Assembly (NCBI GenBank): GCA_963829245.1
Contig: CAWHIM010000037.1
Coordinates: 211,862-275,861 of the forward strand
From: an uncultured bacterium
GTDB taxonomy: Bacteria > Desulfobacterota > Deferrimicrobia > Deferrimicrobiales > Deferrimicrobiaceae
Direction of reading: 5' to 3'
DNA length: 64,000 nucleotides
In this document: one piece after another, positions 7,402 through 61,834 of the stretch
Position numbering within the stretch: the stretch's first letter is position 1
Layout: each line of letters starts with the position of its first letter
The notes under the pieces: generated by a model
What the model was told of the DNA's origin: nothing
What the model saw: only the letters and a program-made list of their open reading frames with translations
Databases searched by the model: none
Translations under genes and position numbers: made by a program

Positions 7402-8046
7402 TCAGACCCTCCGACGGTTGTCGTCCGGGAAGGTATATTCCATGTGCCGTGCGGTAGCTCGTGCGACAGCTTCACCGTGATACCGCAGGACCACCCGGAG
7501 CGCCATGTCGATCCCGGCCGAGATCCCCGCGGAGGTGAAGATTCTCCCTTCCTCGACCACGTGCAGTTTGTCCTCCACGGTCACGTCGGGGAAGGAGTCG
7601 CGCATCCATCCGAGGGATCGCCAATGGGTCGTGGCCCGGTGGCCGTCCAGCAGGCCCGCCCGACCGAGCAGCATCGCCCCGGTGCAGACGGAGGTGAGCG
7701 TCTCCGCCGACCGGCCCCGGTCGGCGATCCACCGTATGAGGTTCCCGTTGTCGATCTCCTTGCGGGTTCCCCACCCCCCGGGGACGACGAGGACGTCCAA
7801 GGGGGGGCAGGTCGAGATCGTCGCATCGGGAAGGACCCGAAGGCCCCCTGACGCCCCGACCGGTTCGTCCCTTTCGGCCACCAGCAGGACTTCGAAGGGG
7901 GAAGGCTCCTCGCGCCGGCGGTCTTCGTTCAGGCGGACGACGGAGAAGACCTCGTAAGGTCCGCAGAAGTCGAGAACTTCCACGTTCGGGAAGATCAGGA
8001 TACCTACGCGCTTGCGATGAGACACGGAAGCCGCCCCCTGGATCAT
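7402..8046 (-). CDS. DJ-1/PfpI family protein (isocyanide-hydratase / GATase1-like)
   Basis: 214 aa. VGILIFPNVEVLDFCGPYEVF and the nucleophile elbow SVCTGAMLLGRAGLLDGHRATTHW. Confidence 0.8.
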   Translation of the reverse strand: MIQGAASVSHRKRVGILIFPNVEVLDFCGPYEVFSVVRLNEDRRREEPSPFEVLLVAERDEPVGASGGLRVLPDATISTCPPLDVLVVPGGWGTRKEIDNGNLIRWIADRGRSAETLTSVCTGAMLLGRAGLLDGHRATTHWRSLGWMRDSFPDVTVEDKLHVVEEGRIFTSAGISAGIDMALRVVLRYHGEAVARATARHMEYTFPDDNRRRV

Positions 8047-43329: not shown

Positions 43330-45054
43330 TTACGGAGACGAGGAACACCCCGGGGTCGAGGAACCCGCGGGATGGGTGGGGCGGGCCGCCTGTTCCGGCA
43401 CCGCCGTCTTCACGGGGTTGAACTGCTTCCACGTCGTGTAGCCGCCGCTCAGGTTCCATGCGCGGAACCCTCGCTGCCTCAGGATCCGTTCCGCGATATA
43501 TCCCCGGATGCCGACGGCGCAGTAGACGACGATGTCGCGGTCCCGCGGGAGCTCGGAGAGGCGCTCACGGATCTTCCCCAGCGGCATGAGCCTGGAGCCG
43601 GGAAGCGCGCCTGCTTTATGTTCCGCCGGCTCGCGGACATCGAGCAACAGGGAGTCCTGTGGAAGAGCGTCCGCATGGACCACCTGAGTTTCGCCGCGCA
43701 GAACGTTGGACGCCACGAACCCGGCGAAGTTGATCGGATCCTTGGCGGAACCGTACGGGGGAGCGTAGGCAAGTTCCAATTCCTGAAGGTCGTACACGGT
43801 CAACCCGGCCTGCATTGCGGTGGCGAGCACGTCGATCCGCTTGTCCACGCCGTCACGCCCGACGATCTGGGCGCCGAGGATCCGCCCTTCCCGCGTGAAC
43901 AGCAGCTTGAGATGCATCATCCGCGCGCCCGGATAATAAGTGGCGTGCGAATATGGATGGAGGTATGCCTTTACGTGCGCCACGCCCGCCTTCCGGAGAG
44001 CCTTTTCCGTCGCGCCGGTGCAGGCTGCCGTCATATCGAACACCTTGACCACAGAGGTGCCGAACGTGGTTTTGTACTCCCGCTCCGCGCCGAAGACGTT
44101 GTCGGCCGAGATTCGCCCCTGGCGGTTCGCCGGGCCGGCAAGAGGGATTTGGGACGAAAGGCCGAGAGCGTCCGTAACCTGGATGGCGTCGCCGATCGCG
44201 TAAATATCCGGGTGGCTTGTCTGCAGGCGGGTGTTGACGACGATTCCTCCCCGCTCTCCGATCGCAAGGCCGGCCGATTTCGCCAGGGACGTGTTCGGCC
44301 GGACGCCGATGGCAAAAACGACGAGATCCGCGGGGAGTTCCCTCCCGTCGCCAAGTCCGACGACGACCTCCGGAGTTCCGGAACCGTCCCGTTCCGCGAG
44401 GCGGCGAACGGCCGTCACCGTGCTCCCGAGCAGCACCTTGACGCCGTTTCGCTCCAGCTCCGCGATCAAAGGTTGCGCCATCTCGGGGTCCAGCGGAGGC
44501 ATGACCTGCGGCAGCATCTCCACCAGTGTCACTTCGACATTGCGCAGGCGAAGGTTCTCGGCCAGCTCCAGCCCCAGAAACCCGCCCCCCACCACGACGG
44601 CGCGTTGTATGCCGGCATCCACCCGCGCCTTGATCCGGTCCATGTCCGGCATCGTCCATAACATCATGACCGCCGGGTCGTCCGCCCCCGGGACATCGGG
44701 TCGGATCGGGCTTGCGCCAGTGGAGAGGATCAGCTTGTCGTAGCTTTCCGTGTACGTATTGCCTGTCGCCCGGTCCAGGATGGAGAGCGTGTGGGCCGCG
44801 GGCTCTACGGCTGTGACCTCGTGGCGTGTGCGCACATCCACGCCGGTTCGCGCATTGAACCGTTCCGGTGTCATGACCAGCAGGCTGTTGCGCCTTGGAA
44901 TGGCCCCACCCACGTGATACGGCAGGCCGCAGTTGGCAAACGATACGTACTCGCCCCGCTCGAACAGGACGATCTCCGCGGTTTCGTCCAGACGGCGCGC
45001 TCTTGCCGCAGCGCTGGCTCCCCCCGCCACTCCGCCGATGATGGCAACTTTCAT
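43330..45054 (-). CDS. CoA-disulfide reductase / NADH-dependent persulfide reductase with C-terminal rhodanese domain
   Basis: ATG 45054. MKVAIIGGVAGGASAAARARRL, redox Cys in SFANCGLPY, a second Rossmann motif VVVGGGFLGLELA, and a C-terminal rhodanese loop VVYCAVGIRG. Confidence 0.85.
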   Translation of the reverse strand: MKVAIIGGVAGGASAAARARRLDETAEIVLFERGEYVSFANCGLPYHVGGAIPRRNSLLVMTPERFNARTGVDVRTRHEVTAVEPAAHTLSILDRATGNTYTESYDKLILSTGASPIRPDVPGADDPAVMMLWTMPDMDRIKARVDAGIQRAVVVGGGFLGLELAENLRLRNVEVTLVEMLPQVMPPLDPEMAQPLIAELERNGVKVLLGSTVTAVRRLAERDGSGTPEVVVGLGDGRELPADLVVFAIGVRPNTSLAKSAGLAIGERGGIVVNTRLQTSHPDIYAIGDAIQVTDALGLSSQIPLAGPANRQGRISADNVFGAEREYKTTFGTSVVKVFDMTAACTGATEKALRKAGVAHVKAYLHPYSHATYYPGARMMHLKLLFTREGRILGAQIVGRDGVDKRIDVLATAMQAGLTVYDLQELELAYAPPYGSAKDPINFAGFVASNVLRGETQVVHADALPQDSLLLDVREPAEHKAGALPGSRLMPLGKIRERLSELPRDRDIVVYCAVGIRGYIAERILRQRGFRAWNLSGGYTTWKQFNPVKTAVPEQAARPTHPAGSSTPGCSSSP

Positions 45055-45563
45055 GGTGCCCCTCTTTCTATTGTGATTCGCCGGTGGTGTTTCAGGCATT
45101 CGAACGCGCCCCCAGTATATCCGTCCCGGCGGAAGGCGTGGGATGATAGGAGGGTGCATCCCACTGCCGCATGCGGCAAAGGAGATCTCCTCCGCCTCCG
45201 ACCCGTCTTTTCGTTTGGCGGGAGGCGATGACTGAAATTCGGGTTGTACCGGCAGGCCCCGGGCCGCTGAAGACGGAGGGGAGTGGCTCCAAAGGAGGTG
45301 ATGATAATCTCGACGTACTGTTGAAATTTTAAACTGATAATCTTCAAGAGATTCAACGCGTGGCAGGTAGCCTCCAAGAAGTGTAGAGAATATACACACA
45401 TTTCGGTTTTCCATCCCCCCTGGGATATGGTTGGTCATTTGCTATGGTTTCCCTTAATTAACAATATGTTATCTAATGTATGCGGGGGGTGGATCGAGAC
45501 TGGCATGGCTGATGCTGTAGATATTGATGCGGGAAGTGGGCTTCGCAGAGGGAGGTGGGAACG

Positions 45564-45644
45564 ATGGGGTACCTGGTGATCGGAATCGCGTACATCGTTC
45601 TGGCGGTGGCCGCCGTGGTGAAACCGCGGGCAGGGCATGCGTAA
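45564..45644 (+). CDS. possible 26-aa hydrophobic peptide upstream of the GcvH-like genes
   Basis: GGAGGTGGGAACG-ATG, then MGYLVIGIAYIVLAVAAVVKPRAGHA-TAA. Good SD spacing and a single TM-like helix. Too short to validate by eye. Confidence 0.3.
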   Translation: MGYLVIGIAYIVLAVAAVVKPRAGHA

Positions 45645-45701
45645 AACGTTCCGGGGAGTCGAGCGGATGAAACGAACCATTAGAGAAGAAGGGGTGCAGA
45701 G

Positions 45702-46412
45702 ATGAAAGAGACAAGGTGCCCTTTTCTGGAAACGAAAACCGTGACGTTCTGCAAGGCGTTCCCGTCGAAGATGATCCCGGTGAACCGGCTGTCCTCCTCG
45801 GGAGGCCTCTGCAACTCCTGCAACTTCGAGGAGTGCTCCCTGTACTGCGAGGTCCGGGGTGGCGGCATGGGGATGGAGCACGTTCGCGGATTCCATCTCA
45901 AGTCCGAGTACTACTACCACCCCAAGCACTTGTGGGTCGCCCCGTACGACGGAGAAGAGGGCGAGGCCCGGGTGGGGATCGACGACTTTTCGTCCCGGCT
46001 GATCGGAAGGGTCGACCGCGCATCGGTGCCCGCCGTCGGCGTGGCGGTGAAAGAGAACCACGTCTGCTTCCTCCTCCACTCCGGCCCGCGGACCGTCCAC
46101 CTGGTTTCACCCGCCGACGGGGTCATCAAGGCCGTCAACCCGAAGGTTGCCGCGGATCCCTCCATCCTCAACGACGATCCGTACTCCGAAGGCTGGATCT
46201 TCTCCATGCGGCTCAAAGGGGACGCGGTGAAGGGGTTGTACCACGAGAACGTCGCCCGGAAGTGGTTCGAAAGCGAGGTCGAACGGTTGCAGCGGGTCTT
46301 CTCTTCCGATTTGGGGATGCTGGCGACGGACGGGGGGGAGGCGCTCACGGATATCAGCAGCCGGTTGAACGACGCGCAATGGGGAAAGATCGTCAGTCAA
46401 TTTCTAGGGTAA
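45702..46412 (+). CDS. GcvH-like (glycine-cleavage H-fold) protein with Cys-rich N-terminus, no lipoyl-lysine
   Basis: N-terminus CPFLETKTVTFC...LCNSCNFEECSLYC. H-fold block HLWV...ARVGIDDFSSRLIGRVDRASVPAVG...VSPADGVIKAVNPKV..DP..NDDPYSEGWIF. The position of the ESVK lysine reads HSGP. Confidence 0.7.
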   Translation: MKETRCPFLETKTVTFCKAFPSKMIPVNRLSSSGGLCNSCNFEECSLYCEVRGGGMGMEHVRGFHLKSEYYYHPKHLWVAPYDGEEGEARVGIDDFSSRLIGRVDRASVPAVGVAVKENHVCFLLHSGPRTVHLVSPADGVIKAVNPKVAADPSILNDDPYSEGWIFSMRLKGDAVKGLYHENVARKWFESEVERLQRVFSSDLGMLATDGGEALTDISSRLNDAQWGKIVSQFLG

Positions 46413-46428
46413 GAGCAGGAGGTGCGCC

Positions 46429-47106
46429 ATGGTAGTCCTTCTCGTCGCAATCACGGTTCTCGCATGCATCGGGGTGGATCTGGCGCTCCGGCGGAGGGAA
46501 AAGGCGGCGGCGGAAGCCCGGTCCGTCGTCCGGGAGCCGGCCGCGCTGTTCCCTTCCCATGCGGCCCAGGAACTTCCCGGCGGCCTGTTCGTCCACGGCG
46601 GCCACACCTGGGCGAAGCTCGATTCCTCCGGCTCCGTACAGGTGGGCCTGGACGGTTTCGCGCAGGGAATCCTCGGAAGGGTCGACCGGTTCGAGCTTCC
46701 CGCGGACGGGGCGACGCTTCGCCAGGGCGAGCCGGCGTTCGCCGCCCTCCAGTCGGGCAAGCGGATCGAGTTCGTGTCCCCCGTCGACGGCGTCGTTTGC
46801 GCGGTGAATGAACGGATCAACGTCGACCCGGCGGCGGCGCGGAAGGAGCCCTACGAGAAGGGATGGGCGTTCATGCTCCGGCCGTCCAACCTCTCCCGGG
46901 ACCTGAAGAAGCTCCGGATCGGCGCGGAAGCCGCGGCGTGGCTGGAAAGGGAAGCCAGGAGTTTCACCGAGTTCCTCTCCCTGCACCGGGCGGTGCCCGC
47001 GGAAGTGGGGGCCACCCTGGCGGACGGAGGGATTCATGCCGAGGGAATCATGGAGACGATGGACGGAGAGATCCTGCAGATCGCGATCCGGAAATATTTT
47101 CGCTGA
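46429..47106 (+). CDS. membrane-anchored GcvH-like protein (paralog 2)
   Basis: AGGAGG before the ATG. N-terminal TM helix MVVLLVAITVLACIGV. H-fold block GHTWAKL...VQVGLDGFAQGILGRVDRFELPADG...VSPVDGVVCAVNERI...EPYEKGWAF. Confidence 0.7.
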   Translation: MVVLLVAITVLACIGVDLALRRREKAAAEARSVVREPAALFPSHAAQELPGGLFVHGGHTWAKLDSSGSVQVGLDGFAQGILGRVDRFELPADGATLRQGEPAFAALQSGKRIEFVSPVDGVVCAVNERINVDPAAARKEPYEKGWAFMLRPSNLSRDLKKLRIGAEAAAWLEREARSFTEFLSLHRAVPAEVGATLADGGIHAEGIMETMDGEILQIAIRKYFR

Positions 47107-47181
47107 CGTCGGATGCCCGTGTTCGGCGAGGCGCATGAGGGTCGTAGAGGAAGAAACGGCGGAAGACGCGGAGGTAGTGAG

Positions 47182-47892
47182 ATGGAAGGATTCAGCCTCG
47201 TAGACATCTATTCGACGAAGGGGATCGAATACCTGATCGCCACGGTATTCTTCTTCGGGTTCCTGGCCCTGCAGCGGTACATCCTGACGTCCGCTCCAGG
47301 GCGGGGAAAGAACCGGGATTGGCATGCCGGGCTTCCGTCCTGGTTCCGCGTTCCCGAGGGGTACGGCTTTCACCAGGGGCATACCTGGATGAAGGTGGAC
47401 CTTCTGAGCCCCGGCCGCCGGAGGTTGGTGAAGGTCGGGCTGGACGACTTCGCGCAGAAGCTCATCGGCAAGGTGGATGCCGTCGTGCTCCCCGCCGTCG
47501 GCTCCCGCCTGACGCAGGGGGACAAGGGGTGGAGCCTCATGGTCGATTCCGAGGCCATCCCGATGCTGTCGCCGGTGGATGGCGAGGTCGTGGCGGTGAA
47601 CCAGGCGGTTCTCCGGTCCCCCGGGATCCTGAGTCGGGATCCGTACGGGGAGGGCTGGCTGCTCAAGGTGAAATCCGACAGGATCGCGGCGGACAGCCGG
47701 AACCTGTTATCGGGGAAGGTGGCCCGGGCCTGGATGGAGACCTCGCTGGAAAACCTCCACCCGACCCGCCACGAAACCCTGGGGCCGGTGATGCAGGACG
47801 GCGGTCTGCCGCTGGAAGGGATCGCGCGGATCCTTGGCGGCGACCAATGGGCGGATCTGGCGAAGACGCATCTGCTGACGGACGTGGAGTAA
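47182..47892 (+). CDS. membrane-anchored GcvH-like protein (paralog 3)
   Basis: GGAGGT before ATG 47182. TM helix IEYLIATVFFFGFLAL. H-fold block GHTWMKV...VKVGLDDFAQKLIGKVDAVVLPAVG...LSPVDGEVVAVNQAV...DPYGEGWLLKV. The lysine position reads DS. Confidence 0.7.
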   Translation: MEGFSLVDIYSTKGIEYLIATVFFFGFLALQRYILTSAPGRGKNRDWHAGLPSWFRVPEGYGFHQGHTWMKVDLLSPGRRRLVKVGLDDFAQKLIGKVDAVVLPAVGSRLTQGDKGWSLMVDSEAIPMLSPVDGEVVAVNQAVLRSPGILSRDPYGEGWLLKVKSDRIAADSRNLLSGKVARAWMETSLENLHPTRHETLGPVMQDGGLPLEGIARILGGDQWADLAKTHLLTDVE

Positions 47893-48054
47893 CGCGGACC
47901 GGGGGGCGCTGCCGTAGTTTGTGCGGAGGGTGCCCCCCCGAACTTCCTCCATCGGCACGAAGGGAATCCCGCCGGTAGCCGAACGTACCGCAAATCCCGT
48001 GCAATCAGCCGCCTTGAAATGGAAATGACCTTGCCTCCGAATCGCGATCGGTGC

Positions 48055-49254
48055 TCATTTCCTCGAGGAAAGGTATTCCTGGAGCCGGTCCAGCGCCGTG
48101 TCGATATTTTCGATCGAGTTCGCGTAAGAGAAGCGGAGATACCCCTGCGCACCCTCGCCGAAGTCGATTCCGGGGGTGACGGCCACCCCCGTAGCCTCGA
48201 GGATCTCCATCGCGAGCCTCAGCGAATCCGGTTGGATGGAACGTGCGTCGGCCAGCACGTAGAATGCCCCCTGGGGGATTCTGCGAACGCCCAGGCCCAG
48301 CGCGCGAAGCCGTTCGACGATGTGACGGCGCCGCCGGTCGTAGGCGGCCCGCATGATTTCCACGTCCCGTCGCCCTTCCTTCAGGACGGCGATTCCGGCC
48401 CGCTGGACGAAATGATTCGCGCTGATCATGAAATTCTGGTGCAGGCTCTGCAGAACCCGCACGCTGGACCGGGGGACGATCAGATATCCCAGCCGCCATC
48501 CCGTCATGGCGAAGGTCTTGGAGAATCCCCCGAAGACAAAGGCGTCCGGATCGAACTCGAGGGCGCTGCGTTCCTCTCCCTCGTAGGTCAGGCCATGGTA
48601 CACCTCGTCGGAGATCAAGGGGATCGGCAGGGAAGCCAGCTCTTCGAGCCAGGCGGAGGGCAGAACCGAGCCGGCGGGGTTGGAAGGGGAGTTGACGAGA
48701 ACCCCGCGCGTCCGCGGCGTGATCCGACGGCGGACTTCCTCGGGGCGCGGCTGGAACCCGTCCTCCTCCCGGGTCCGGAGAAAGCAGGGGGTGCCTCCCG
48801 GGAAGCGGATGAAGTTGGGGTAGCAGGAGTAGCAAGGGTCGGAAAGGATGATCTCGTCGCCTTTGTCGAGCAGTGCCGAGAAGAGAAGGAACATGAGCGG
48901 GCTGGTGCCGGAGGAGACGATGATCCGCCCGGAGTCGACAGCGATGCCGTATCTCCGGGCATAATGCTCCGCGATCGCCTCACGCAGCTCCGGCAGACCG
49001 AGGGAATGGGTATAGGTGGTCTCCCCTTGCCGAATCGCTCGGATCGCGGCCTCGGAAGCCACCGCCGGCGTCGGGAAATCGGGCTCCCCTACGCACAGGT
49101 AAACGATGTCTCTCCCCCCGGCTTCCAGCTCCTTGGCCCGCTCGAGAACCTCCATCGCGAGGAATGGGGTAACCGCCTCGGCGCGGCGGGAGAAGCGCGG
49201 GTTCGTCTTGACGTTCTTCATTCGCCACAAGATAGCATAGTCCGGATTGGGCAC
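48055..49254 (-). CDS. class I/II pyridoxal-phosphate aminotransferase (aspartate/aromatic type)
   Basis: GEPDFPTP, SNPAGSV, and FSKTFAMTGWRLGY with the PLP lysine. The start may instead be the internal MKNVK at 49221. Confidence 0.9.
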   Translation of the reverse strand: MPNPDYAILWRMKNVKTNPRFSRRAEAVTPFLAMEVLERAKELEAGGRDIVYLCVGEPDFPTPAVASEAAIRAIRQGETTYTHSLGLPELREAIAEHYARRYGIAVDSGRIIVSSGTSPLMFLLFSALLDKGDEIILSDPCYSCYPNFIRFPGGTPCFLRTREEDGFQPRPEEVRRRITPRTRGVLVNSPSNPAGSVLPSAWLEELASLPIPLISDEVYHGLTYEGEERSALEFDPDAFVFGGFSKTFAMTGWRLGYLIVPRSSVRVLQSLHQNFMISANHFVQRAGIAVLKEGRRDVEIMRAAYDRRRRHIVERLRALGLGVRRIPQGAFYVLADARSIQPDSLRLAMEILEATGVAVTPGIDFGEGAQGYLRFSYANSIENIDTALDRLQEYLSSRK

Positions 49255-51096: not shown

Positions 51097-51911
51097 GAAT
51101 CGCCGCTTTGCAGATCGACATCGCCTTGGGAAACCCGGAACACAACAGGAGCGTCATCGTTGGGCTGGCCGCGTCTACCGATGCGGACCTCGTAGTGTTC
51201 CCCGAATGTGCCCTTTCCGGGTACGCCTTCGACGGCGCCGAAGAGGCAAGGGCGCATGCGGAGTCGATCCCCGGGCCTACGACCGAGGCGCTGCTTTCGG
51301 TGGCGGTTTCCAGGCGTCGTTGCATCGTCGTCGGGATGCTCGAACGTGAAGGGGACCGGATGTGGAATTCCGCTGTTCTTGTGACCCCCGACGGGAAGAT
51401 CGCGAAGTACCGGAAAACCCATCTTCCCTGTCTCGGGGTGGACCGGTTCGTCGTTCCCGGTGATCGTCTTTCGGTCTTCGACACCCCGGTCGGTCGACTG
51501 GGGATCCAGATTTGCTATGACCTGCGATTCCCCGAGAGCGCGCGCTGTCTCGCGCTGGAAGGTGCCGAGATCCTGGTCGTTCCGACGAACTGGCCCCGAG
51601 GCGCCGAGGCCATCCCGGAAATCCTGCTTCCGGCAAGGGCCGTGGAGAACGGCGTGTTCGTCGTGGCGACAAACCGGGTCGGCACCGAGAACGGGACCGA
51701 ATACATCGGGCAGTCGGCGATTATCGACCCACGGGGAAAAACACTGGCCAACATGGAAAAAGGCGAAGGGTCAGTCATCGCCGAGGTCAATCCCGCAAAG
51801 GCCCGTGAGAAACACATCGTCCGAAAGCCTGGAGAATACGAAATCGACCTCGTCGCCGACCGGCGACCCGATCTGTACGGGCCGCTCGTGCGGACGGATG
51901 GAAATGTCTGA
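51090..51911 (+). CDS. carbon-nitrogen hydrolase (nitrilase superfamily amidohydrolase)
   Basis: The catalytic triad context is present: VFPECALSGY (Glu), KYRKTHL (Lys) and LGIQICYDLRFPE (Cys). Confidence 0.85.
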   Translation: MVRIAALQIDIALGNPEHNRSVIVGLAASTDADLVVFPECALSGYAFDGAEEARAHAESIPGPTTEALLSVAVSRRRCIVVGMLEREGDRMWNSAVLVTPDGKIAKYRKTHLPCLGVDRFVVPGDRLSVFDTPVGRLGIQICYDLRFPESARCLALEGAEILVVPTNWPRGAEAIPEILLPARAVENGVFVVATNRVGTENGTEYIGQSAIIDPRGKTLANMEKGEGSVIAEVNPAKAREKHIVRKPGEYEIDLVADRRPDLYGPLVRTDGNV

Positions 51912-52788
51912 ACTGATCGTTCAGCAGATCGTCAACGGGATCGTCCTGGGGAGCATCTATACGCTCGTTGCGTTGGGACTGACGCTCATCTACGGGATCC
52001 TGGAGGTCGTCAACTTCGCCCACGGGGAGTTCTACATGTTCGGGGCCTTCGTGGCCTTCCTCGGTGTCAGCCGGCTGGGCATGCCCTATCTGCCCGCGAT
52101 TGCGGTGGCCGCCGCCGTGAGCGCGGTTTTCGGCTTCGTCGTCGAGCGTCTCCTGATCCGCCCCCTCATTCGCCGCGGGGCACCTCCCATCAACGGCGTC
52201 CTTATGACCGTCAGTTTATCGACGTTCCTGATCGGGTCCTTCGGGTATCTCTTCGGCGCCGACCTGCGGCAAATCCCCTCTCCTTACATGAAAAAGGTTA
52301 TCCATGTCGCGGGCGCGTTTCTTACGGTGCAGCGCCTCCTTGTCCTCGTCGTGGCGGTCTTCCTCATTGTCCTCCTCGCCGCCATCGTCAAGTACACCTT
52401 GCTCGGGAAGCAGATGCGCGCGACGGCCCAGAATATCGAGGCGGCCCGGGTCGTGGGTATTCCGATCGACCGCGTATTTTCGATCACGTTCATGATCGGC
52501 GCAGCGCTCGCGGGAATCGCGGGGTCTCTCGTGGGGGCCATGTTCGTAGTGGAGCCGACGATGGGCCTTCAAATCGTGGTGAAAGCCTTCATCGTGGTGA
52601 TCGTTGGCGGGATCGGCAGCATCGAAGGGTCGATCATTGCCGGATTCGGCTTGGCGCTGATCGAGACGCTGGCAGGTGCGCTGCTCCCGGCGGAGTTCAT
52701 CGACATCGTGGGTTTTTCGGTCATGATCGTCGTCCTGCTTACAAAACCGACCGGATTTTTCGGTGTCAAAGCGGTGCGCCGTGCATAA
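51904..52788 (+). CDS. LivH-type ABC permease
   Basis: MSELIVQQIVNGIVLGSIYTLVALGLTLIYGILEVVNFAHGEFYMFGAF is the canonical LivH N-terminus. The ATG overlaps the upstream stop. Confidence 0.9.
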   Translation: MSELIVQQIVNGIVLGSIYTLVALGLTLIYGILEVVNFAHGEFYMFGAFVAFLGVSRLGMPYLPAIAVAAAVSAVFGFVVERLLIRPLIRRGAPPINGVLMTVSLSTFLIGSFGYLFGADLRQIPSPYMKKVIHVAGAFLTVQRLLVLVVAVFLIVLLAAIVKYTLLGKQMRATAQNIEAARVVGIPIDRVFSITFMIGAALAGIAGSLVGAMFVVEPTMGLQIVVKAFIVVIVGGIGSIEGSIIAGFGLALIETLAGALLPAEFIDIVGFSVMIVVLLTKPTGFFGVKAVRRA

Positions 52789-53770
52789 GGCGGGGATCGT
52801 CGGGGTCGTTTCGGCCACTGTCCTTGCCGTGCTCCTTCCGCTGGGCCTGACGCAACCGTATCTTCAGCACCTCCTCGTGGCATCCGTGATCAACGGCATC
52901 CTGGCCGTCAGCCTCGGGATCGTGGTCGGGTTCCTCGGGGAGCTTTCCTTGGCGCACGGGGCGTTCTACGGGATCGGGGCCTATACCTCAGCCCTGCTGG
53001 CGAAGAACTTTGGGGTGCCCCTTTTCCTCGCCCTTCCCGCGGCCACCCTTGGGGCGGCCTTGACGGGGTTTCTCATCGGCATCCCCGCCCTGCGGTTGAG
53101 CGGCCACTATTTCGCGATCGCCACCCTGGGGTTCCAGGGGATTGTGATCCTTCTGATCACCAACCTCGTCGAGATCACACGGGGGCCCATGGGACTTTCC
53201 GGCATCCCGGCCCCTGGGGGGATCCACCTGTTCGGGGTCGGGATCTCGTTCCAGACCAAGACGGGATTCTACTACCTCTCCCTAGCCGTCCTGTTGGTCA
53301 CGCTGTGGTTCACGTACAATCTCATGCGTTCCAAGTTCGGCCAGGGGTTCATCGCGATTCGCGAGGACCCTCTGCTCGCAGCGTCCGTCGGTATCCGGAC
53401 GAGGAGGTATCGACTCCTGGCGTTCTGCGTCAGCGCCGGCATTGCGGGCGCCGCCGGCAGCCTCTACGCCCACTACACGTTGTTTATCAGCCCGGACTCT
53501 TTCAACCTCGGCGAGTCCGTCTACATCGCCACCATGGTGATCATCGGGGGCATGGGAACCATTTCGGGCCCGCTGGTGGGCGCCGTCCTTCTCACGATCC
53601 TACCCGAGATGCTGAGAGTGGCCGGCGGGTTACAGTTCGTCCTGTACGGTCTGATCGCCATGGTCGTGATCATCTTCATGCCCAAGGGGATCGTCGGCAT
53701 GGCCGCAACGTATCTGTGGGGGCAGCGGGACGCGCGGATCGCGGCGCCCGGAACAACGACCGGGGAGTGA
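52763..53770 (+). CDS. LivM-type ABC permease
   Basis: LSLAHGAFYGIGAYTSALL and LRLSGHYFAIATLGF motifs. The start is uncertain: GTG 52763 or GTG 52781. Confidence 0.85.
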   Translation: MSKRCAVHKAGIVGVVSATVLAVLLPLGLTQPYLQHLLVASVINGILAVSLGIVVGFLGELSLAHGAFYGIGAYTSALLAKNFGVPLFLALPAATLGAALTGFLIGIPALRLSGHYFAIATLGFQGIVILLITNLVEITRGPMGLSGIPAPGGIHLFGVGISFQTKTGFYYLSLAVLLVTLWFTYNLMRSKFGQGFIAIREDPLLAASVGIRTRRYRLLAFCVSAGIAGAAGSLYAHYTLFISPDSFNLGESVYIATMVIIGGMGTISGPLVGAVLLTILPEMLRVAGGLQFVLYGLIAMVVIIFMPKGIVGMAATYLWGQRDARIAAPGTTTGE

Positions 53771-53774
53771 GGAC

Positions 53775-54542
53775 ATGGATCTTCTGGCCGTCTCCAACGT
53801 GTCGAAATATTACGGCGGTCTCGCGGCGAACAGCGATGTGTCGTGCCGCATCCGGGAAGGGGAGATCGTCAGCTTTATCGGCCCGAACGGAGCCGGGAAG
53901 ACGACCCTCTTCAACCTGATCTCCGGTGTTGAGAAGGCCGATCACGGCACGATCGAGTATGCAGGCAGGGACATCGGCGGAATGGAGCCCCCGGAGATTG
54001 CCCGCATGGGACTTGTAAGGACGTTCCAGCAGACGAAAATCTTCCGCGACGTGAAGGTGAAGGAGGCGGTGATGATCGGTCGACACATCCACGACCGGAC
54101 ACGCTTCCTTGGCGCCCTGCTGGCGAGCCGAAGCGCGCGCGCGGAGCGCGGACGCAGCATCGAGGAGGTATCCGGGATCCTCGCCTTCCTGGGGTTGTCT
54201 TCTCGTGCGGAATCGGTTGCGGGCAATCTCGCCTACGGCGATCAGAAGTTGCTGGGGATCGCGATCTCCCTCGCGGTGGGGCCGAAGCTCCTGTTGCTCG
54301 ATGAGCCCGCCGCAGGCTTGAACATCCAGGAGTCGGTCCGGCTGATGGAGATTATCCGGAGGATCCGGGAAAGGGGGATCACCATCGGCCTGGTAGAGCA
54401 CAACATGAAACTCGTTATGAATATATCCGACCGCGTCCTGGTGTTGAACTACGGGGAACTCATCAGCGAGGGTACCCCGGGAGAGGTGCGAAAGGACCCG
54501 GGTGTCATCGAAGCCTACCTGGGTAAATCCGCAAATGCTTGA
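53775..54542 (+). CDS. LivG-type ABC ATP-binding protein
   Basis: Walker A GPNGAGKTT, LAYGDQKLLGIAISL, Walker B LLLDEPAAG, and the tail VIEAYLG. Confidence 0.9.
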   Translation: MDLLAVSNVSKYYGGLAANSDVSCRIREGEIVSFIGPNGAGKTTLFNLISGVEKADHGTIEYAGRDIGGMEPPEIARMGLVRTFQQTKIFRDVKVKEAVMIGRHIHDRTRFLGALLASRSARAERGRSIEEVSGILAFLGLSSRAESVAGNLAYGDQKLLGIAISLAVGPKLLLLDEPAAGLNIQESVRLMEIIRRIRERGITIGLVEHNMKLVMNISDRVLVLNYGELISEGTPGEVRKDPGVIEAYLGKSANA

Positions 54543-55239
54543 GCTCAGAGACGTCCACGTCAGCTACGGTTCCGTTCCGGCGCTGAGGGGAGTGTCCGTG
54601 CATGTCGGGAAAGGGGAGATCGTCGCCCTGATCGGTGCCAACGGCGCGGGGAAAACGACCACCCTCCGCTCCATCCAGGGACTGGTCCGGCCGAGTGCTG
54701 GAAGCATCTGGATGGACGGCGGGGAGATCACCCGCACGGTTCCGCACAGGATCGTCGCCGGCGGGATTTCCCATTGCCCTGAAGGACGCCAGGTGTTTCC
54801 CTCCATGACGGTCCTCGAGAACCTCGAGCTTGGCGCGGTCGCCCTTGCGGAACGGACCGGGTTCGAGGCGCAACTGCAAACCGTATTCGACCTTTTCCCG
54901 CGTCTCCACGAACGCAGGCGCCAGCTCGCCGGGAGTTTGTCCGGGGGGGAGCAGCAGATGCTTGCCATCGGCAGGGCGGTGATGGCCCAACCGCGGGTAC
55001 TGCTTCTTGACGAGCCCTCCATGGGGCTGGCCCCGATCGTGGTCGAGAACATTTTCGACATGATCAGGATGATCAACAGCCGGGGGGTTTCCATTCTTCT
55101 GGTGGAGCAGAACGCTGTCCTTGCATTAGAGATTGCCTCGCGAGGGTACGTCCTTGAAACCGGGCGGGTCGCCCTCGAGGGGCCCGCGGGGGAGCTTACC
55201 CGGAACAAGCACGTCCAGGAGGCGTACCTGGGTGTTTAG
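54535..55239 (+). CDS. LivF-type ABC ATP-binding protein
   Basis: MLELRDVHVSYGSVPALRG, Walker A GANGAGKTT, LSGGEQQMLAIGRAV, and the tail HVQEAYLGV. Confidence 0.9.
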   Translation: MLELRDVHVSYGSVPALRGVSVHVGKGEIVALIGANGAGKTTTLRSIQGLVRPSAGSIWMDGGEITRTVPHRIVAGGISHCPEGRQVFPSMTVLENLELGAVALAERTGFEAQLQTVFDLFPRLHERRRQLAGSLSGGEQQMLAIGRAVMAQPRVLLLDEPSMGLAPIVVENIFDMIRMINSRGVSILLVEQNAVLALEIASRGYVLETGRVALEGPAGELTRNKHVQEAYLGV

Positions 55240-55711
55240 GCGGAATGCAGGCATCGCGGTACTCGCCGCACTCCTGGCCGGTTTTTCCGGAATCGCACGC
55301 GGGGACGACGCTCCCACGCGGTGCGGGGAATGTGCAAGGGCCTGCGACCTGGTTCGTGGGTTCGGGCAGGGGGAAGGGGGGCGAGCCGACATCGGTTTTC
55401 TCGTTGATCTGAACATGCGCGGGTGGAAGCCCCAGTCGACCCGGGGGATCGAGATTCTCGGGTGGAGCGCGGTTCCGCAGAAGGAATCGCAGTGCCTGGT
55501 CTATTACACGTACAGGGAGCGGGAGGAGATCTCCCTGGTTTGGCGGGTGGATATCCGCAGCGGGGACCTCACCCCGCTGACATCGTTGACCGAACGCATT
55601 CAAAAAATGGCGGAGTATTACCGGGAAACGACAACAAGAAGCAAGGAATCGTCGGAAGACGATCGGAGTGAACCAAACAGATGGAGGAGGGTATCGCCAT
55701 GCGGAAAGTAG
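55232..55711 (+). CDS. hypothetical secreted protein embedded in the ABC operon
   Basis: GTG 55232 overlaps the LivF stop. Signal-like VFRRNAGIAVLAALLAGFSGIARG, then a CxxCxxxC motif (CGECARAC). No family recognised. Confidence 0.4.
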   Translation: MFRRNAGIAVLAALLAGFSGIARGDDAPTRCGECARACDLVRGFGQGEGGRADIGFLVDLNMRGWKPQSTRGIEILGWSAVPQKESQCLVYYTYREREEISLVWRVDIRSGDLTPLTSLTERIQKMAEYYRETTTRSKESSEDDRSEPNRWRRVSPCGK

Positions 55712-56859
55712 GTTTGTACGCGTTCCTGCTCATCCTTTGTTTCGCCGTCGCGGCCGGGGCTGCCGAACCTGTCAAGATCGGGGTCGTCCTTCCGTTTACC
55801 GGACCGGTGGCCTCCGACGGGGGAAGGACATTCAACGGCATCCAGCTTGCCGTGTCGGAGATCAATGCCAAGGGAGGCGTAACGATCGGAGGCAAGAAGA
55901 GCCCCATTGAGATCATCAAGGAGGACAGCACGTGCAATCCGCGGCTCTCTGTCGCCGCCACGGAAAAACTGATGACGCGCGACATGGTATCGGCCGTCAT
56001 CGGTGATTTCTGCAGCACGTCGACCTTGGCCGACGCCGAGGTGGCGAAACGGAGCGAGGTGTCCTTGATTACCCCGATATCGATCGCTCCTTCGATCACC
56101 AAACAAGGGAACATCTGGGTTTTCCGGACGGCGGACAGCTCCGACATGATGGCCCTCGCATTCGTGGACTACGCGGTGAAGAGCCTCGGAATCAAGCGCT
56201 GGGCATTCCTGGCGCGCAACGACGACTACGGGCGGGGGAGCGTGGAGTCGATGAGCCCGCTGATAAAGAAAGCGGGCGGATCCGTAGCGGCCGTAGAGTA
56301 CCACCCGCAGGGGGCGACGGACTACTACACGCTACTGACCAAGATCCGGAGCACCAAGCCCGACGGCATAGCGCTTATCGCCAACTCCGCGGAGCACTCG
56401 GTGGCCGTCAACCAGATGGCGGAACTGGGGATGACCAGGGAGGTCAAACTGCTCGATCCTACCAGCGCCTACTTTAATCCCGACTTTCTCCGGCTCACGG
56501 GAAAAAACTCCGACGGGATGGTAGGGCCAACGCGGTACGTTGACGTAATCGACACCCCGGCGAACAAGAAGTTCGTCAAGGAATACCAGGCGGCCCACAA
56601 GGAGAACCCGGACAAGTTTGCACAGAGCGGCTACGAGACCGTCCACATCCTCGCGCAGGCGATCGCGCGGGCCAACGGGACCACCCCAAAGGCAGTCAGG
56701 GATGCGTTGACCAAGACGAAATACAAGGGAATCCAGGGACGGGAGTATCATTTCGATGCCACCAACCAGTTGGTCATCGATGAGTACATCGTCCAGGTAA
56801 AGGGTGGCGTCTACAATGTCCTCGGCAAGGTGTCAGGCGAGGCTGTCACCGGTCAATAA
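55699..56859 (+). CDS. LivK/LivJ-type periplasmic substrate-binding protein
   Basis: MRKVGLYAFLLILCFAVAAGAAEPVKIGVVLPFTGPVASDGG... is typical of type-1 periplasmic binding proteins. An alternative start lies at 55681. Confidence 0.85.
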   Translation: MRKVGLYAFLLILCFAVAAGAAEPVKIGVVLPFTGPVASDGGRTFNGIQLAVSEINAKGGVTIGGKKSPIEIIKEDSTCNPRLSVAATEKLMTRDMVSAVIGDFCSTSTLADAEVAKRSEVSLITPISIAPSITKQGNIWVFRTADSSDMMALAFVDYAVKSLGIKRWAFLARNDDYGRGSVESMSPLIKKAGGSVAAVEYHPQGATDYYTLLTKIRSTKPDGIALIANSAEHSVAVNQMAELGMTREVKLLDPTSAYFNPDFLRLTGKNSDGMVGPTRYVDVIDTPANKKFVKEYQAAHKENPDKFAQSGYETVHILAQAIARANGTTPKAVRDALTKTKYKGIQGREYHFDATNQLVIDEYIVQVKGGVYNVLGKVSGEAVTGQ

Positions 56860-58621: not shown

Positions 58622-58918
58622 GGCGGAAGGTTCCCCCTTTCCCTCGTTGCAGCCCTCATGGTTCGAAGCCGGTGTGCGGGGAAAAGTTTCGGTCAGGAGG
58701 ACCGGGGCATTACCCCTGCCGGCGGGTCGTCAGCAGCCTGCGGCAACCTGCGTCCTTTCCAATACATCAAAACACGTACCGAAACGGCGGTGCCGCCGGG
58801 CGCGGGAGGAGGGGGCGCACGATGATCGGCTTGCCATGCAAACCCCTTGTGCGCAGGAAGATGCGCCGCCCCGTCCACGGCGGGAAGGCGGCATAAAAGG
58901 GAAGAGCGGGGAGGACGC

Positions 58919-61834
58919 ATGGGGACGGATTCCGGCCAGGATGTTGTAAAAGCAAAGGGGCAGGAGATCTTCCGGCTCATGGGGGAGGCAAGGCCGGCCC
59001 TCTTCGACAGGGGGTGGTGGGCGGGCCGGATGATGGAACGGGTGATGCGGGACACGTCGCTCAAGGTCCCGCTGTTCCGTTTCGTGGACGTCCTCCCCGC
59101 CTTGAACGATCGCCACCAGATCGCGAGGCACGCAAGGGAATATTTCGCGGACGGAACGTCGCCGCTCCCATGGTTCGTGAATTTCCTTCCGTCCTACCTG
59201 GTGAAGATGGGCGTTACCCGTTTTTCCAGGATCTTCATCGCCGGGGAGACCCCCCGGTCGGCCCTTAAAAGCCTCCGGCGACTGCGCGACGAGGGGAAAC
59301 CTTTCACCGCCGACATCCTGGGGGAGGCGGTGGTCTCCGAAGCGGAGGCGGAACGGTACAGGGACCTTTACCTGCTGCTGGTGGACACGCTCTCCAGGGA
59401 GGTATCCGGCTGGCCCCCGATCGACCCGCATTTGGAGCCGTCCTTCCCGCGCCTGCACATTTCGGTGAAGATCAGCTCCCTGTATTCCCGCATCGGACCG
59501 GCCAATCACGAGGACAGCGTCCGGGAGGTTCGTCGGAGGCTGCTGCCCATCCTCGCCAAGGTCCGGGAAGCGGACGGGTTCGTGAACCTCGACATGGAAA
59601 CATACGACCTGAAGGAGATCACGCTCGACGTCCTGAAGGAGACCCTGGACGATTCCGGGTTCCGCGGATGGGACCACGCCGGGGTCGCCCTCCAGGCGTA
59701 TCTGAAATGTGCGGAGCGGGATCTGCGGCGGCTGATCGGCTGGGCGAAGGAGGGAAACCGGCGCATCACGGTCCGCCTGGTGAAGGGGGCCTACCGGGAA
59801 TACGAAACCATTGTGGCTCGGCAAAAAGGGCGGGAGAACCCCGTGTTCCCCCGGAAAGCGCACACCGACGCGAATTTCGAGCGGTGCGTGGAGATCGCCC
59901 TGGAAAACCACGAGCACGTGACGCTTGCCGTCGGCTCGCACAATGTGCGGTCGATCGCCAAGGCGCTGGCGACGGCGGAGAGGCTCAAGGTTCCTCGAGA
60001 GCGGTACGAGTTCCAGATGCTCTACGGCATGGGGGAACCGATCAAGCGCGCGCTCATGACGATGGGGTTTCCGGTACGCGAATACGCCCCGATCGGGGAG
60101 CTTCTGCCCGGAATGGCGTACCTGGTGCGGCGCCTGCTGGAAAACGCCTCGAACGAAGGGTTCCTCCAGAGGGCGTTTCATGGCCATGTTCCTCCGGAAG
60201 ACCTCCTCGCGGAGCCGGAACGCTTTGCGGAAGCGCCGCGCGACAGGGAGGCGGAAGAGGTAAAGCCGTTTTCCAACGAGCCGGTCGCCGATTTCACGAT
60301 CAGGGAATCCCGTACAGCCTTCCGCGATTCCCTCACGGAGGCGGGAAACCGGATGCGGGAAAGTTATCCCGCTGTCATCGGCGGAAAGGAGTACCGGCAG
60401 GGGGAACCGATCGTCTCCGTCGACCCGGCCCGCCCGCGGGAAGTCGTGGGGACAGTCTGCGGCATTACGCGGGAGCTCGTCGATCACGCGGTGCGGGCCG
60501 CCCGCGAGGCGCAAAAAGGATGGTCGCGACGTTCCCCCGGGGACCGGGCGGCGGTCCTGTTCCGTGCCGCTTCCGCGGCGCGCCGGCGGAGAGGGGAGCT
60601 CGCGGCATGGCAGGTGCGCGAAGTCGGGAAGAGCTGGCTGGAGGCGGACGCCGACGTGGCCGAAGCCATCGACTACCTGGAATACTACGGCCGGGAGATG
60701 ATCCGCCTGGGCAAGGGCGCACGGTTGGGCGACTGCCCCGGGGAAGAGAATATCTACCTGTACCGTCCGCGGGGCGTGGGCCTCGTCATCGCGCCGTGGA
60801 ATTTCCCCCTCGCCATTTCGGTCGGGATGGCCTCCGCGGCGCTGGTCACCGGGAACGCCGTCCTCTACAAGCCATCGAGCCTCTCTCCCGTCAACGGCTG
60901 GCTCGCGTTCTCCCTGCTGCGGGAAGGCGGGGCGCCCGACGGCGCTCTGAATTTCATCCCCGGAAAGGGTGACTCCATGGGGGATCGCCTCGTCGGCCAT
61001 CCGGAGGTCGATTTCATCCTCTTCACCGGGTCCCGGGCCGTGGGCCTGCGGATCGTGGAGAAGGCTGGACGGACCCGGGGGGGACAGAAGTCGGTCAAGC
61101 GGGCCGTCGTGGAGATGGGGGGCAAGAACGCGATCCTGATCGATGCCGATGCCGACCTGGATCAGGCGATTCCGGCGGTCATCTCCTCCGCGTTCGGGTA
61201 CCAGGGACAGAAATGCTCCGCCTGCTCCAGGGTGATCGTCCACGCGGATTGCTACGACCGCTTCCTGGCCCGGCTGTGCGAGGCGGTCAATGGGCTGACG
61301 GTCGGACCGCCGGAGGACCCCTCCAACGGGATCGGGCCCGTAATCGACGCCGCCGCGAAGGAGAGGATCCAGGCGATCATCGAACTCGGGAGGCGGGAGG
61401 GGAAGGTGGCCGCGGAAATCCCGGTCCCCGGCGAAGGGTATTACGTATCCCCGACGGTCCTCACGGATCTTCCCCCGGATTCGAAGATCTTGAGGGAGGA
61501 AATTTTCGGACCGGTGCTCGCCGTCATCCGTGCCGGAGATATCGAGGAGGCCGTAGGCCTGGCGAACTCCTCCGACTATGCATTGACGGGAGGCCTTTTC
61601 TCCAGGAGTCCGGCGACGATCCGGCGCGTCGGGGAGACGTTCGATGTCGGCAACCTTTACATCAACCGTGGAATCACGGGCGCGGTCGTGGGCCGACAGC
61701 CGTTTGGAGGATTCCGGATGTCGGGCGTCGGCTCCAAGGCGGGTGGGCCCGATTATCTCCTGCAGTTCATGGAACCGAGGGTCATCACGGAAAACACGAT
61801 GCGAAGGGGGTTTTCCCCCGACGTCCTGCCTTGA
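58919..61834 (+). CDS. putA: bifunctional proline dehydrogenase / L-glutamate-gamma-semialdehyde dehydrogenase
   Basis: About 971 aa. The PRODH barrel ends with YEFQMLYGMGEP...YAPIGELLPGMAYLVRRLLEN. The ALDH domain has EMGGKNA and GQKCSACSRV with the catalytic Cys. Confidence 0.9.
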   Translation: MGTDSGQDVVKAKGQEIFRLMGEARPALFDRGWWAGRMMERVMRDTSLKVPLFRFVDVLPALNDRHQIARHAREYFADGTSPLPWFVNFLPSYLVKMGVTRFSRIFIAGETPRSALKSLRRLRDEGKPFTADILGEAVVSEAEAERYRDLYLLLVDTLSREVSGWPPIDPHLEPSFPRLHISVKISSLYSRIGPANHEDSVREVRRRLLPILAKVREADGFVNLDMETYDLKEITLDVLKETLDDSGFRGWDHAGVALQAYLKCAERDLRRLIGWAKEGNRRITVRLVKGAYREYETIVARQKGRENPVFPRKAHTDANFERCVEIALENHEHVTLAVGSHNVRSIAKALATAERLKVPRERYEFQMLYGMGEPIKRALMTMGFPVREYAPIGELLPGMAYLVRRLLENASNEGFLQRAFHGHVPPEDLLAEPERFAEAPRDREAEEVKPFSNEPVADFTIRESRTAFRDSLTEAGNRMRESYPAVIGGKEYRQGEPIVSVDPARPREVVGTVCGITRELVDHAVRAAREAQKGWSRRSPGDRAAVLFRAASAARRRRGELAAWQVREVGKSWLEADADVAEAIDYLEYYGREMIRLGKGARLGDCPGEENIYLYRPRGVGLVIAPWNFPLAISVGMASAALVTGNAVLYKPSSLSPVNGWLAFSLLREGGAPDGALNFIPGKGDSMGDRLVGHPEVDFILFTGSRAVGLRIVEKAGRTRGGQKSVKRAVVEMGGKNAILIDADADLDQAIPAVISSAFGYQGQKCSACSRVIVHADCYDRFLARLCEAVNGLTVGPPEDPSNGIGPVIDAAAKERIQAIIELGRREGKVAAEIPVPGEGYYVSPTVLTDLPPDSKILREEIFGPVLAVIRAGDIEEAVGLANSSDYALTGGLFSRSPATIRRVGETFDVGNLYINRGITGAVVGRQPFGGFRMSGVGSKAGGPDYLLQFMEPRVITENTMRRGFSPDVLP

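Follow-up and report, generated by a model that had tools for sequence, protein, structure and literature searches.

In a 64-kb stretch of DNA from an uncultured member of the Deferrimicrobiaceae (contig CAWHIM010000037.1; this whole stretch is called the window below), a gene for a membrane micro-protein (g0) and a triplet of genes for proteins resembling the glycine cleavage H-protein GcvH (g1, g2, and g3) occupy positions 45564-47892. In relatives, the same genes belong to a larger operon that also encodes the parts of a membrane module resembling the Hmc complex of Desulfovibrio. We put the probability at roughly 0.5 that the products of g0 to g3 are cytoplasm-facing, non-lipoylated components of this uncharacterised Hmc-like membrane module. 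Three features of the operon are those of genes for complex subunits: the gene order is fixed, genes overlap, and an HmcD-like helix is encoded in the position of hmcD. Related loci are given here with L-numbers and proteins of the family with P-numbers.

All four genes lie on the forward strand. The open reading frame (ORF) of g0 (45564..45644) encodes a single transmembrane (TM) helix of 26 amino acids (aa), MGYLVIGIAYIVLAVAAVVKPRAGHA, and has a Shine-Dalgarno site, GGAGGTGG, 5 nt upstream. A preliminary description of this DNA, made from the letters alone, had listed it as a TM-like peptide ORF; it is a real gene, since g0 and its Shine-Dalgarno site are intact in 53 of 57 loci, where the hydrophobic pattern is kept while the residues vary. 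The soluble g1 protein (45702..46412; 236 aa) consists of a Cys4 module (residues 1-50), a GcvH-fold core (residues 57-175), and a helical C-terminal extension with a DGG motif. The g2 protein (46429..47106; 225 aa) has an N-terminal TM helix, the GcvH-fold core, and the DGG extension. The g3 protein (47182..47892; 236 aa) begins with an HmcD-like motif and a TM helix, which are again followed by the core and the DGG extension. The open frame of g3 extends back to 47113; its start is the ATG at 47182 (MEGFS...), as in every ortholog. These coordinates agree with the gaps described earlier, 16 nt between g1 and g2 and 75 nt between g2 and g3. The three proteins are 29-35% identical to one another. 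The G+C content at third codon positions is 0.83-0.85 for g1, g2, and g3 in a genome with 62% G+C, and all three are therefore real genes.

The H-protein fold and the lost lipoyl lysine

The H-protein fold that had been claimed for the triplet held up in both a profile search and a structure model. All three proteins passed the Pfam GCV_H model (67.5 bits for g1, 68.5 for g2, and 68.4 for g3, with a cut-off of 22.2), and they scored 57-75 bits against the NCBIfam GcvH models, about half of the cut-offs (115.85 for TIGR00527 and 117 for NF002270). An AlphaFold2 model of g1, built from 47 homologs, has the hybrid-barrel H-fold, with a predicted local distance difference test score (pLDDT) of ~90 across residues 57-175. 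In a Foldseek search, this model superposed on the solved H-proteins 1onl, 3a8i, and 3ab9 (E 1e-12, TM-score 0.88-0.91, root mean square deviation (rmsd) 1.4-1.7 A).

The canonical lipoyl lysine, which at least two of the proteins had been said to lack, is lost in all three. The lipoyl site reads HSGP in g1 and VDSE in g3, and the residues aligned with the lysine are P (g1), G (g2), and S (g3). When g2 is aligned with E. coli GcvH by phmmer, without gaps, the lipoyl lysine stands opposite the Gly of QSGK, and the Lys of g2 comes one position later. Family column statistics were calculated for 148 domains from 150 representatives of 50%-identity clusters. The canonical lysine column holds G in 48 domains, D in 25, S in 15, N in 15, and E in 14, and Lys is rare; the column at +1 holds Arg in 64 domains and Lys in 29. 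No hairpin column is conserved across the 148 domains. Given a canonical column in which Lys is rare and a hairpin without a conserved position, the whole family is a non-lipoylatable derivative of the H-protein.

Several details would fit a different role, in which these proteins are carriers of an unusual prosthetic group: the shifted Lys of g2 would bear a lipoyl or acyl group, or other members would use a hairpin Cys, and the domain would be a swinging arm like LbpA for sHdr. The Lys of g2 lies at +1 of the canonical site, a Cys lies two residues before the site in 28 of the 148 domains, and Hdr-type and Hmc-type complexes elsewhere use thiol/disulfide carriers (PMC6067878 for LbpA). We consider this role highly improbable in view of the residues found in the canonical and +1 columns and the lack of a conserved hairpin position. 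In addition, g1 and g3 have neither Lys nor Cys at the hairpin, and lipoate ligases, lipoyl synthases, and CCG-domain proteins were found neither in the window nor among the family's conserved neighbours. The excess of Arg over Lys at +1 makes lipoylation unlikely, and these statistics disfavour the shifted Lys of g2 as a lipoylation site; it looks like one option at a generally basic position.

The glycine-cleavage system is not the context of these genes either, as the preliminary description had concluded. Among the 40 large ORFs scanned across the window, none contained a GcvP, GcvT, lipoate ligase, or lipoyl synthase Pfam domain, and Lpd-type domains were confined to a CoA-disulfide reductase (CoADR)-rhodanese protein that has the SFxxC motif of CoADR. 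Among the conserved neighbours of 88 related loci, no link to gcvP, gcvT, or lpd was found. Homologs that are lipoylated at the shifted Lys and linked to gcvPT had been named as one finding that would refute the observation; the +1 column favours Arg over Lys, and gcvPT is absent from the conserved neighbours.

Other positions are strongly conserved. At least 90% of the 148 domains share the second His and the Trp of H-x2-H-x-W, the first Asp of DDF, the Pro and Gly of SPxxG, an Asn, PY-x2-GW, a Trp, and the final Trp. The first His of H-x2-H-x-W, the second Asp and the Phe of DDF, and the Ser of SP are weaker family-wide. The DGG motif is invariant in the C-terminal extension of ~60 residues. 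Within the g1 type, the invariant residues are C6, C17, C37, C45, H73, H76, W78, D94, and D210-G212.

The full operon in relatives encodes an Hmc-like module

Homologs of g1 at 59-93% identity come from metagenome-assembled genomes (MAGs) named Candidatus Deferrimicrobium or Deferrimicrobiaceae, a lineage that genome analysis has assigned to the candidate phylum MBNT15 (PMC9386147). A locus scan with one genome per GTDB species returned 80 loci, which were classified by tblastn. In every long contig examined, the genes follow the order histidine kinase, M54 archaemetzincin, sigma-54 response regulator, g0, g1, g2, a Tat-signal Fer4_11 protein (nrfC), an NrfD-family protein (nrfD), and g3. The full order, called type-1 here, was present in ~45 of the 80 loci (Deferrimicrobiaceae, MBNT15). 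A search for the triplet in other genomes, suggested at the outset, thus recovered related genes in these ~45 full-operon loci and a junction lacking nrfCD in five others. In the full operon, nrfC and nrfD overlap by 11 nt, and nrfD and g3 by 22 nt.

The NrfC-like protein is a Tat-exported 4Fe-4S protein with HmcB as its closest family (354 bits, cut-off 420) and a further match to HybA. The NrfD-like protein, a quinone-interacting membrane protein, is closest to HmcC (408 bits, cut-off 550), with 253 bits for HybB. A profile search with the g3 type retrieved 3156 proteins at E <= 1e-10, many of which carry PF28260 'DVU_0533', a recent addition to Pfam. DVU0533 is HmcD of the Desulfovibrio vulgaris hmc operon; the HmcD-like segment has therefore already been seen by curators. 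The NCBIfam HmcD model (NF045712) matched g3-type orthologs over residues 10-34 (E 2e-5 to 2e-3; 18-24 bits, cut-off 34). On the strength of these HmcB, HmcC, and HmcD matches, the relatives encode HmcB-, HmcC-, and HmcD-like parts, arranged as in hmcBCD, and join the HmcD-like helix to an H-fold domain. The multihaem cytochrome HmcA, the cytochrome b HmcE, and the CCG-domain protein HmcF were not found among the conserved neighbours.

The regulatory genes at the start of the operon have recognisable features of their own. The histidine kinase (L006 6070-7668, with orthologs in L003, L040, and L089) carries a periplasmic domain of ~170 residues, flanked by two TM helices. A CxxCH and a Cx4CH motif are conserved in this domain, and because of these motifs the kinase is probably a haem c redox sensor. 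The archaemetzincin encoded between kinase and regulator has an intact HExxHxxGxxH motif.

N-terminal modules and the DGG segment

The triplet was found, as described before, to comprise one soluble Cys-rich paralog and two membrane-anchored ones. The N-terminus of g2 has an uncharged hydrophobic stretch (residues 2-19) followed by RRREK, and in g3 a helix is modelled over residues 6-36, again followed by basic residues. By the positive-inside rule, the H-fold domains of g2 and g3 are predicted to be cytoplasmic. The N-terminal motif of the g3 type is invariant at D8, I9, T12, K13, G14, I15, E16, and Y17.

For the N-terminus of g1, the preliminary description was right about the six-Cys cluster and wrong about one spacing, which is C40-x4-C45 and not x5; moreover, four of the six Cys are conserved. 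The pattern in g1 is C6-x10-C17-x19-C37-x2-C40-x4-C45-x3-C49, and only C6, C17, C37, and C45 are invariant. Because four of the six are conserved, a putative metal site in g1 is more likely to be a Cys4 site than a larger cluster. The consensus of this module of ~45 residues is C-P-F-L-x6-F-C-x2-x-P-x-K-M-I-P-x10-C-x7-C-x2-Y. It had no match in a PDB-sequence profile search or in per-member Pfam scans, and it was not folded in the AlphaFold model (pLDDT <50).

A second Cys4 module occurs once or twice before the H-fold in Desulfobacterota (L064-L088), with the pattern C-x-W-x3-G-x6-7-C-x5-C-x2-C-x-F-D-Q or the variant C-R-H-x-L-x-G-R...C-x5-C-x2-C-x-Y-D-Q; it had no Pfam match. Other members of the family are fusions. 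In P0127 a receiver domain, a Cys4 module, and a GcvH-like unit are joined in one protein, and in P0131 and P0391-P0401 of Gemmatimonadota a TM segment and two tandem GcvH-like units form proteins of 413-421 aa that are encoded directly after nrfCD. At L089, two short proteins (7673-7939, 88 aa, and 8937-9152, 71 aa) consist of a TM helix and a '...G(L/F)TMADGGD' motif and have no H-fold core. Because the motif is found there without the H-fold, these sequences suggest that the DGG segment is a functional unit by itself.

Neighbours across phyla

The arrangement around nrfCD recurs outside the Deferrimicrobiaceae. Several loci have the order TM-GcvH-like, nrfC, nrfD, HmcD-type GcvH-like (for example L063, L066, and L073, from an unclassified deltaproteobacterial MAG, Calditrichota, and KSB1), frequently accompanied by a Cys-rich member, and g2-type orthologs lie directly 5' of nrfC in several phyla. 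There are variants of this order: in a Nitrospirota locus the gene before nrfC encodes a different protein, both GcvH-like genes of L067 are upstream, the Cys-rich member of L085 is downstream, and in Gemmatimonadota nrfC and nrfD are followed by the gene for the tandem double GcvH-like protein. A cytochrome c3-like (tetrahaem) gene comes after nrfD in one lineage (L089 11413-11793), and a cytochrome c7-like gene after the double GcvH-like gene in Gemmatimonadota (L092 1456-2655). The products of these two genes are possible periplasmic electron partners of the module.

ORF clustering of 27 loci outside the Deferrimicrobiaceae returned as conserved neighbours a kinase/regulator (22 loci), M54 (19), NrfC (8), and NrfD (7), and no others. 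The kinase, archaemetzincin, and regulator genes, which are upstream in type-1 loci, are downstream or divergent in other phyla. In Desulfobacterales, Desulfarculaceae, and Syntrophobacteraceae, the GcvH-like protein is soluble and has a different Cys4 module; its gene lies beside M54, regulator, and kinase genes, without nrfCD.

These counts are what would be expected if the H-fold proteins were partners in signalling, that is, effectors, connectors, or feedback regulators of the kinase, the sigma-54 regulator, and the archaemetzincin, by a logic comparable to Psp or MgrB-type feedback, and if NrfCD were optional co-regulated cargo. The kinase/regulator and M54 are far commoner neighbours than NrfC and NrfD, the soluble Cys-rich GcvH-like gene of Desulfobacterota is the sole gene beside the regulators, P0127 fuses a receiver domain to a Cys4-GcvH-like unit, and the window locus persists without nrfCD. 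We nevertheless think this explanation unlikely, if a serious one. Loci with nrfCD have the genes for the membrane-anchored forms on either side of it in fixed order, the genes overlap, and g3 brings an HmcD-like helix, all of which is subunit-like; the H-fold proteins also have no DNA-binding or enzymatic output domain.

The window copy lacks nrfCD

We compared the window with a type-1 locus, L006. Window positions 45452-47117 align to L006 9752-11413 at 91%, and positions 47167-47936 align to L006 13611-14380 at 89%; between these segments, L006 has 2197 bp (nrfCD) and the window 49 nt. By this alignment, the g2-g3 spacer of the window (47107..47181, forward strand) is a junction without hmcB/hmcC-like genes that retains a remnant of the 3' end of nrfD. 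An overlapping frame at the junction reads EVVRWKDSAS, compared with EVVRWTVSAS at the C-terminus of NrfD. The window triplet is a remnant or paralog of the conserved sigma-54-controlled operon that has HmcB/HmcC-like genes between g2 and g3. Homologs of the kinase, M54, and sigma-54 regulator genes were not found in the 64 kb either.

The same junction is present in six loci (the window, L008, L009, L015, L025, and L027; type-2), in which the three genes are 83-97% identical and have intact frames. L008, from another genome and with different flanks, is colinear with window 45297-47905 at 93.4%. An assembly artefact as the cause of the missing nrfCD is excluded by L008, which has the same junction and other flanks, and by the four further loci. 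In the type-2 loci, nrfCD is found just downstream (L009 and L025), divergently upstream (L015), or nowhere within 8 kb (L027, L008, and the window). In a more divergent Deferrimicrobiaceae MAG (L059 1112-1943; g1 53% identical), g3 also comes right after g2, but the sequence at the junction is a different one; adjacency of the two genes may therefore have evolved more than once.

Three MAGs carry a full type-1 locus together with one or two type-2 loci. The copies within a MAG (L009/L010, L015/L016, and L024/L025/L027) share 99-100% identity in g1 and g2 and 93.5-98.6% in g3. Between MAGs, identity is 88-94% for g1 and g2 and 81-98% for g3. Because identity within MAGs exceeds that between MAGs, we infer gene conversion, i.e., concerted evolution between paralogous loci on different contigs. 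For the window and L008, dN/dS is 0.19 for g1, 0.23 for g2, and 0.41 for g3, and for g3 paralogs within a genome it is 0.3-0.66; these ratios agree with functional genes but, with gene conversion between the locus types, are weak evidence for selection on the window copy.

The window triplet might then be a functionless leftover, decaying after the deletion of the Hmc-like genes. It is 2.2 kb short of the standard operon, with a scrap of the nrfD 3' end left behind, and the locus has neither the kinase gene nor the regulator gene. We judge decay to be very unlikely. The identical junction occurs with intact frames at all six loci, a promoter, the Shine-Dalgarno sites, and g0 are retained, and two type-2 loci have nrfCD just downstream and one has it upstream. 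The dN/dS values of 0.19-0.41 point in the same direction, with the qualification that gene conversion from a full locus could mask decay.

Promoter and regulation

A sigma-54 (-24/-12) promoter, TGGCAT-GGCTG-ATGCT, lies at 45501..45516 on the forward strand and has the conserved GG-N10-GC spacing. The element is conserved in every locus aligned, ~200 nt upstream of g1 or, in the distant loci L040, L046, and L001, ~150 nt upstream. The gene for a sigma-54 activator is upstream and adjacent in type-1 loci, and is absent from the window. Two palindrome-like elements on the forward strand are candidate sites for the enhancer-binding protein. Element 1, cTGTTGAAattTTAAACtg (45318..45336), contains TGTTGAA...CAAC at the same distance from the promoter in type-1 and type-2 loci, and in type-1 loci it adjoins the response regulator. 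Element 2, GTGTAGAGAATATACACAC (45381..45399), is of the palindrome type TGTAGAGA-N2-TCTCTACA, and its second half-site is degenerate in the window. Conserved palindromes of this type lie ~110 nt upstream of the promoter in type-1 and type-2 loci as well as in L040, L046, and L001. Because the promoter and the upstream palindromes are retained, the window locus is probably switched on in trans by the same regulator, encoded elsewhere.

No sigma-70-like promoter and no intrinsic terminator were found in 45000-48200. A riboswitch or other RNA in the leader of 650 nt was considered and rejected after an Rfam scan of 44900-48200, which had no match there.

Proposed role of the H-fold proteins

The reading that we favour, that of g0 to g3 as components of the Hmc-like module, can be put as follows. 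The HmcD-like helix of g3, the helix of g2, and the micro-protein g0 would dock on the HmcC-like subunit. The H-fold domains of g2 and g3, together with their DGG-bearing C-terminal extensions, would then project into the cytoplasm if the positive-inside rule holds, and soluble g1 would join them via its Cys4 metal site. The H-fold would serve as a protein-binding scaffold and not as a swinging-arm carrier, perhaps to regulate, or to couple, the quinone module's cytoplasmic face. For QrcD, HybB, and HmcC, proton uptake from the cytoplasm to the quinone site has been proposed (PMC6303296). That the cytoplasmic attachment to the HmcC-like subunit acts at this proton uptake is speculation. The window copy would supply extra or alternative g0 to g3 proteins to a module encoded elsewhere in the genome.

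A number of observations weigh against this reading. The HmcB and HmcC matches are under their equivalog cut-offs, the HmcD match is under its family cut-off (18-24 against 34 bits), and the N-terminus of the window's own g3 has no HmcD match, though it shares the invariant motif. No nrfC or nrfD homolog was found anywhere in the 64-kb window, and gene conversion, not selection on this copy, may keep the window genes intact. Outside the Deferrimicrobiaceae, 19 of the 27 loci have the GcvH-like gene with kinase, regulator, and peptidase genes but without nrfCD; the H-fold proteins therefore have a role that does not need an Hmc-like module encoded in cis. A purely structural role is also at odds with the receiver-domain fusion and with the neighbours, as two-component and archaemetzincin genes accompany the family more tightly and more broadly.

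A wider reading takes in both kinds of neighbours: the lipoyl-less H-fold, whether joined to an HmcD helix, held by a helix of its own, or equipped with a new Cys4 domain, would be a cytoplasmic module linking an Hmc/Hyb-type quinone module to a circuit of haem-sensing kinase, sigma-54 regulator, and archaemetzincin. We offer it tentatively, and would sooner bet against it than for it.

Significance

A literature search, which did not cover the BBA 2021 review of NrfD, found no paper that ties H-protein-like proteins to NrfD/Hmc/Hyb modules or to archaemetzincins and sigma-54, and the association is not mentioned in NrfD-focused papers or in the MBNT15 genome paper. The H-protein fold and the Hmc/NrfCD modules were already known, as was the HmcD-like segment through its Pfam family; the association of H-fold and Hmc-like module appears to be new.

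Among the quinone-interacting units of anaerobic respiration, two-subunit modules of the NrfD family are the most common. What Hmc-type complexes do, and what their tiny HmcD subunit contributes, is still uncertain, and an HmcD fused to a recognisable soluble domain gives a handle on its position and contacts. The family adds three uncharacterised modules, namely the Cys4 module, the second CxxC-FDQ module, and the DGG extension, and a recurrent link to archaemetzincins, whose bacterial role is not established. Databases give the name 'glycine cleavage system protein H' to more than 3000 of these proteins though they are not lipoylatable, which is an automatic mis-annotation. Because of it, metabolic reconstructions from MBNT15, Desulfobacterota, KSB1, and Calditrichota MAGs that count these as glycine-cleavage genes are wrong. 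If the wider reading above is correct, the operon would encode a previously unrecognised class of NrfD-family complex with a cytoplasmic face that is non-redox (or Cys4-redox), and a combined respiratory and sensing device would be present in at least six bacterial phyla.

Other features of the window

The divergent neighbour of the triplet is the gene for a CoADR-type flavoprotein with a C-terminal rhodanese domain (43330-45054, reverse strand), recognised by its SFANCGLPY active-site motif and resembling persulfide/polysulfide reductases. Its mechanical ORF extends to 45438; the true start is the ATG at 45054 (MKVAIIGG). A functional link between this gene and the triplet is unsupported: L008 has an alcohol dehydrogenase gene in its place, and no such neighbour is conserved. 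A sub-threshold Rfam match to V_AS7, a Vibrio antisense RNA (44900-45035, forward strand; 78 bits against a gathering score of 90, E 3e-14), runs antisense to the 5' end of the flavoprotein gene and is clipped at the edge of the searched range. It is probably conserved FAD-binding coding sequence and not an RNA gene.

Farther away on the forward strand, the window encodes a multihaem cytochrome c with c7/c3/MtrC-like domains (25408-26775), a branched-chain amino-acid ABC transporter with an IclR regulator and a formamidase-like gene (51460-56859), and a trifunctional PutA (58847-61834).

Comparison with known systems

GcvH (PF01597, TIGR00527) has the same fold as the triplet proteins (TM-score 0.9 and rmsd ~1.5 A to 1onl and 3a8i) and the core motifs HxW, SPxxG, and PYxxGW. 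In contrast to GcvH, g1 to g3 have no lipoyl Lys and no gcvPT context, and they score half of the NCBIfam cut-off. They also have the family motifs H-x2-H-x-W and DDF, the extension of ~60 residues with the invariant DGG, and an N-terminal TM helix or Cys4 module.

The Hmc complex of Desulfovibrio (HmcABCDEF), HybAB, and QrcCD are the closest likeness to the full operon. The relatives have HmcB-, HmcC-, and HmcD-like parts in hmcBCD order, their Fe-S subunit is Tat-exported, and their NrfD subunit falls in the HmcC/HybB branch. They differ from Hmc in lacking the cytochrome HmcA, the cytochrome b HmcE, and the CCG protein HmcF, in the fusion of the HmcD-like helix to an H-fold, in the presence of two further H-fold proteins and a micro-protein, and in matches that stay below the equivalog cut-offs. 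The window itself differs further, as it is without the B-like and C-like genes.

LbpA of the sHdr sulfur-oxidation system (PMC6067878) is likewise a GcvH-like protein in a membrane- or redox-associated system beyond glycine cleavage, and often occurs in several copies; however, LbpA keeps the lipoyl Lys, dedicated ligases, and hdr neighbours (PMC6067878), and g1 to g3 have none of these. GcvH-L of the SirTM/macrodomain operon (PDB 5a35) also has an H-fold that has diverged from glycine cleavage, and the structural match of g1 to it is weaker (E 5e-6). GcvH-L keeps its Lys, whereas g1 to g3 do not. The families TIGR03077 ('not_gcvH') and NF045810 ('GcvH-related protein') are diverged H-folds too, but g1 to g3 reach only 25-48 bits against cut-offs of 144-150. 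The TM module, the Cys4 module, and the DGG extension set the g1-g3 family apart from GcvH-L, TIGR03077, and NF045810, none of which has any of them.

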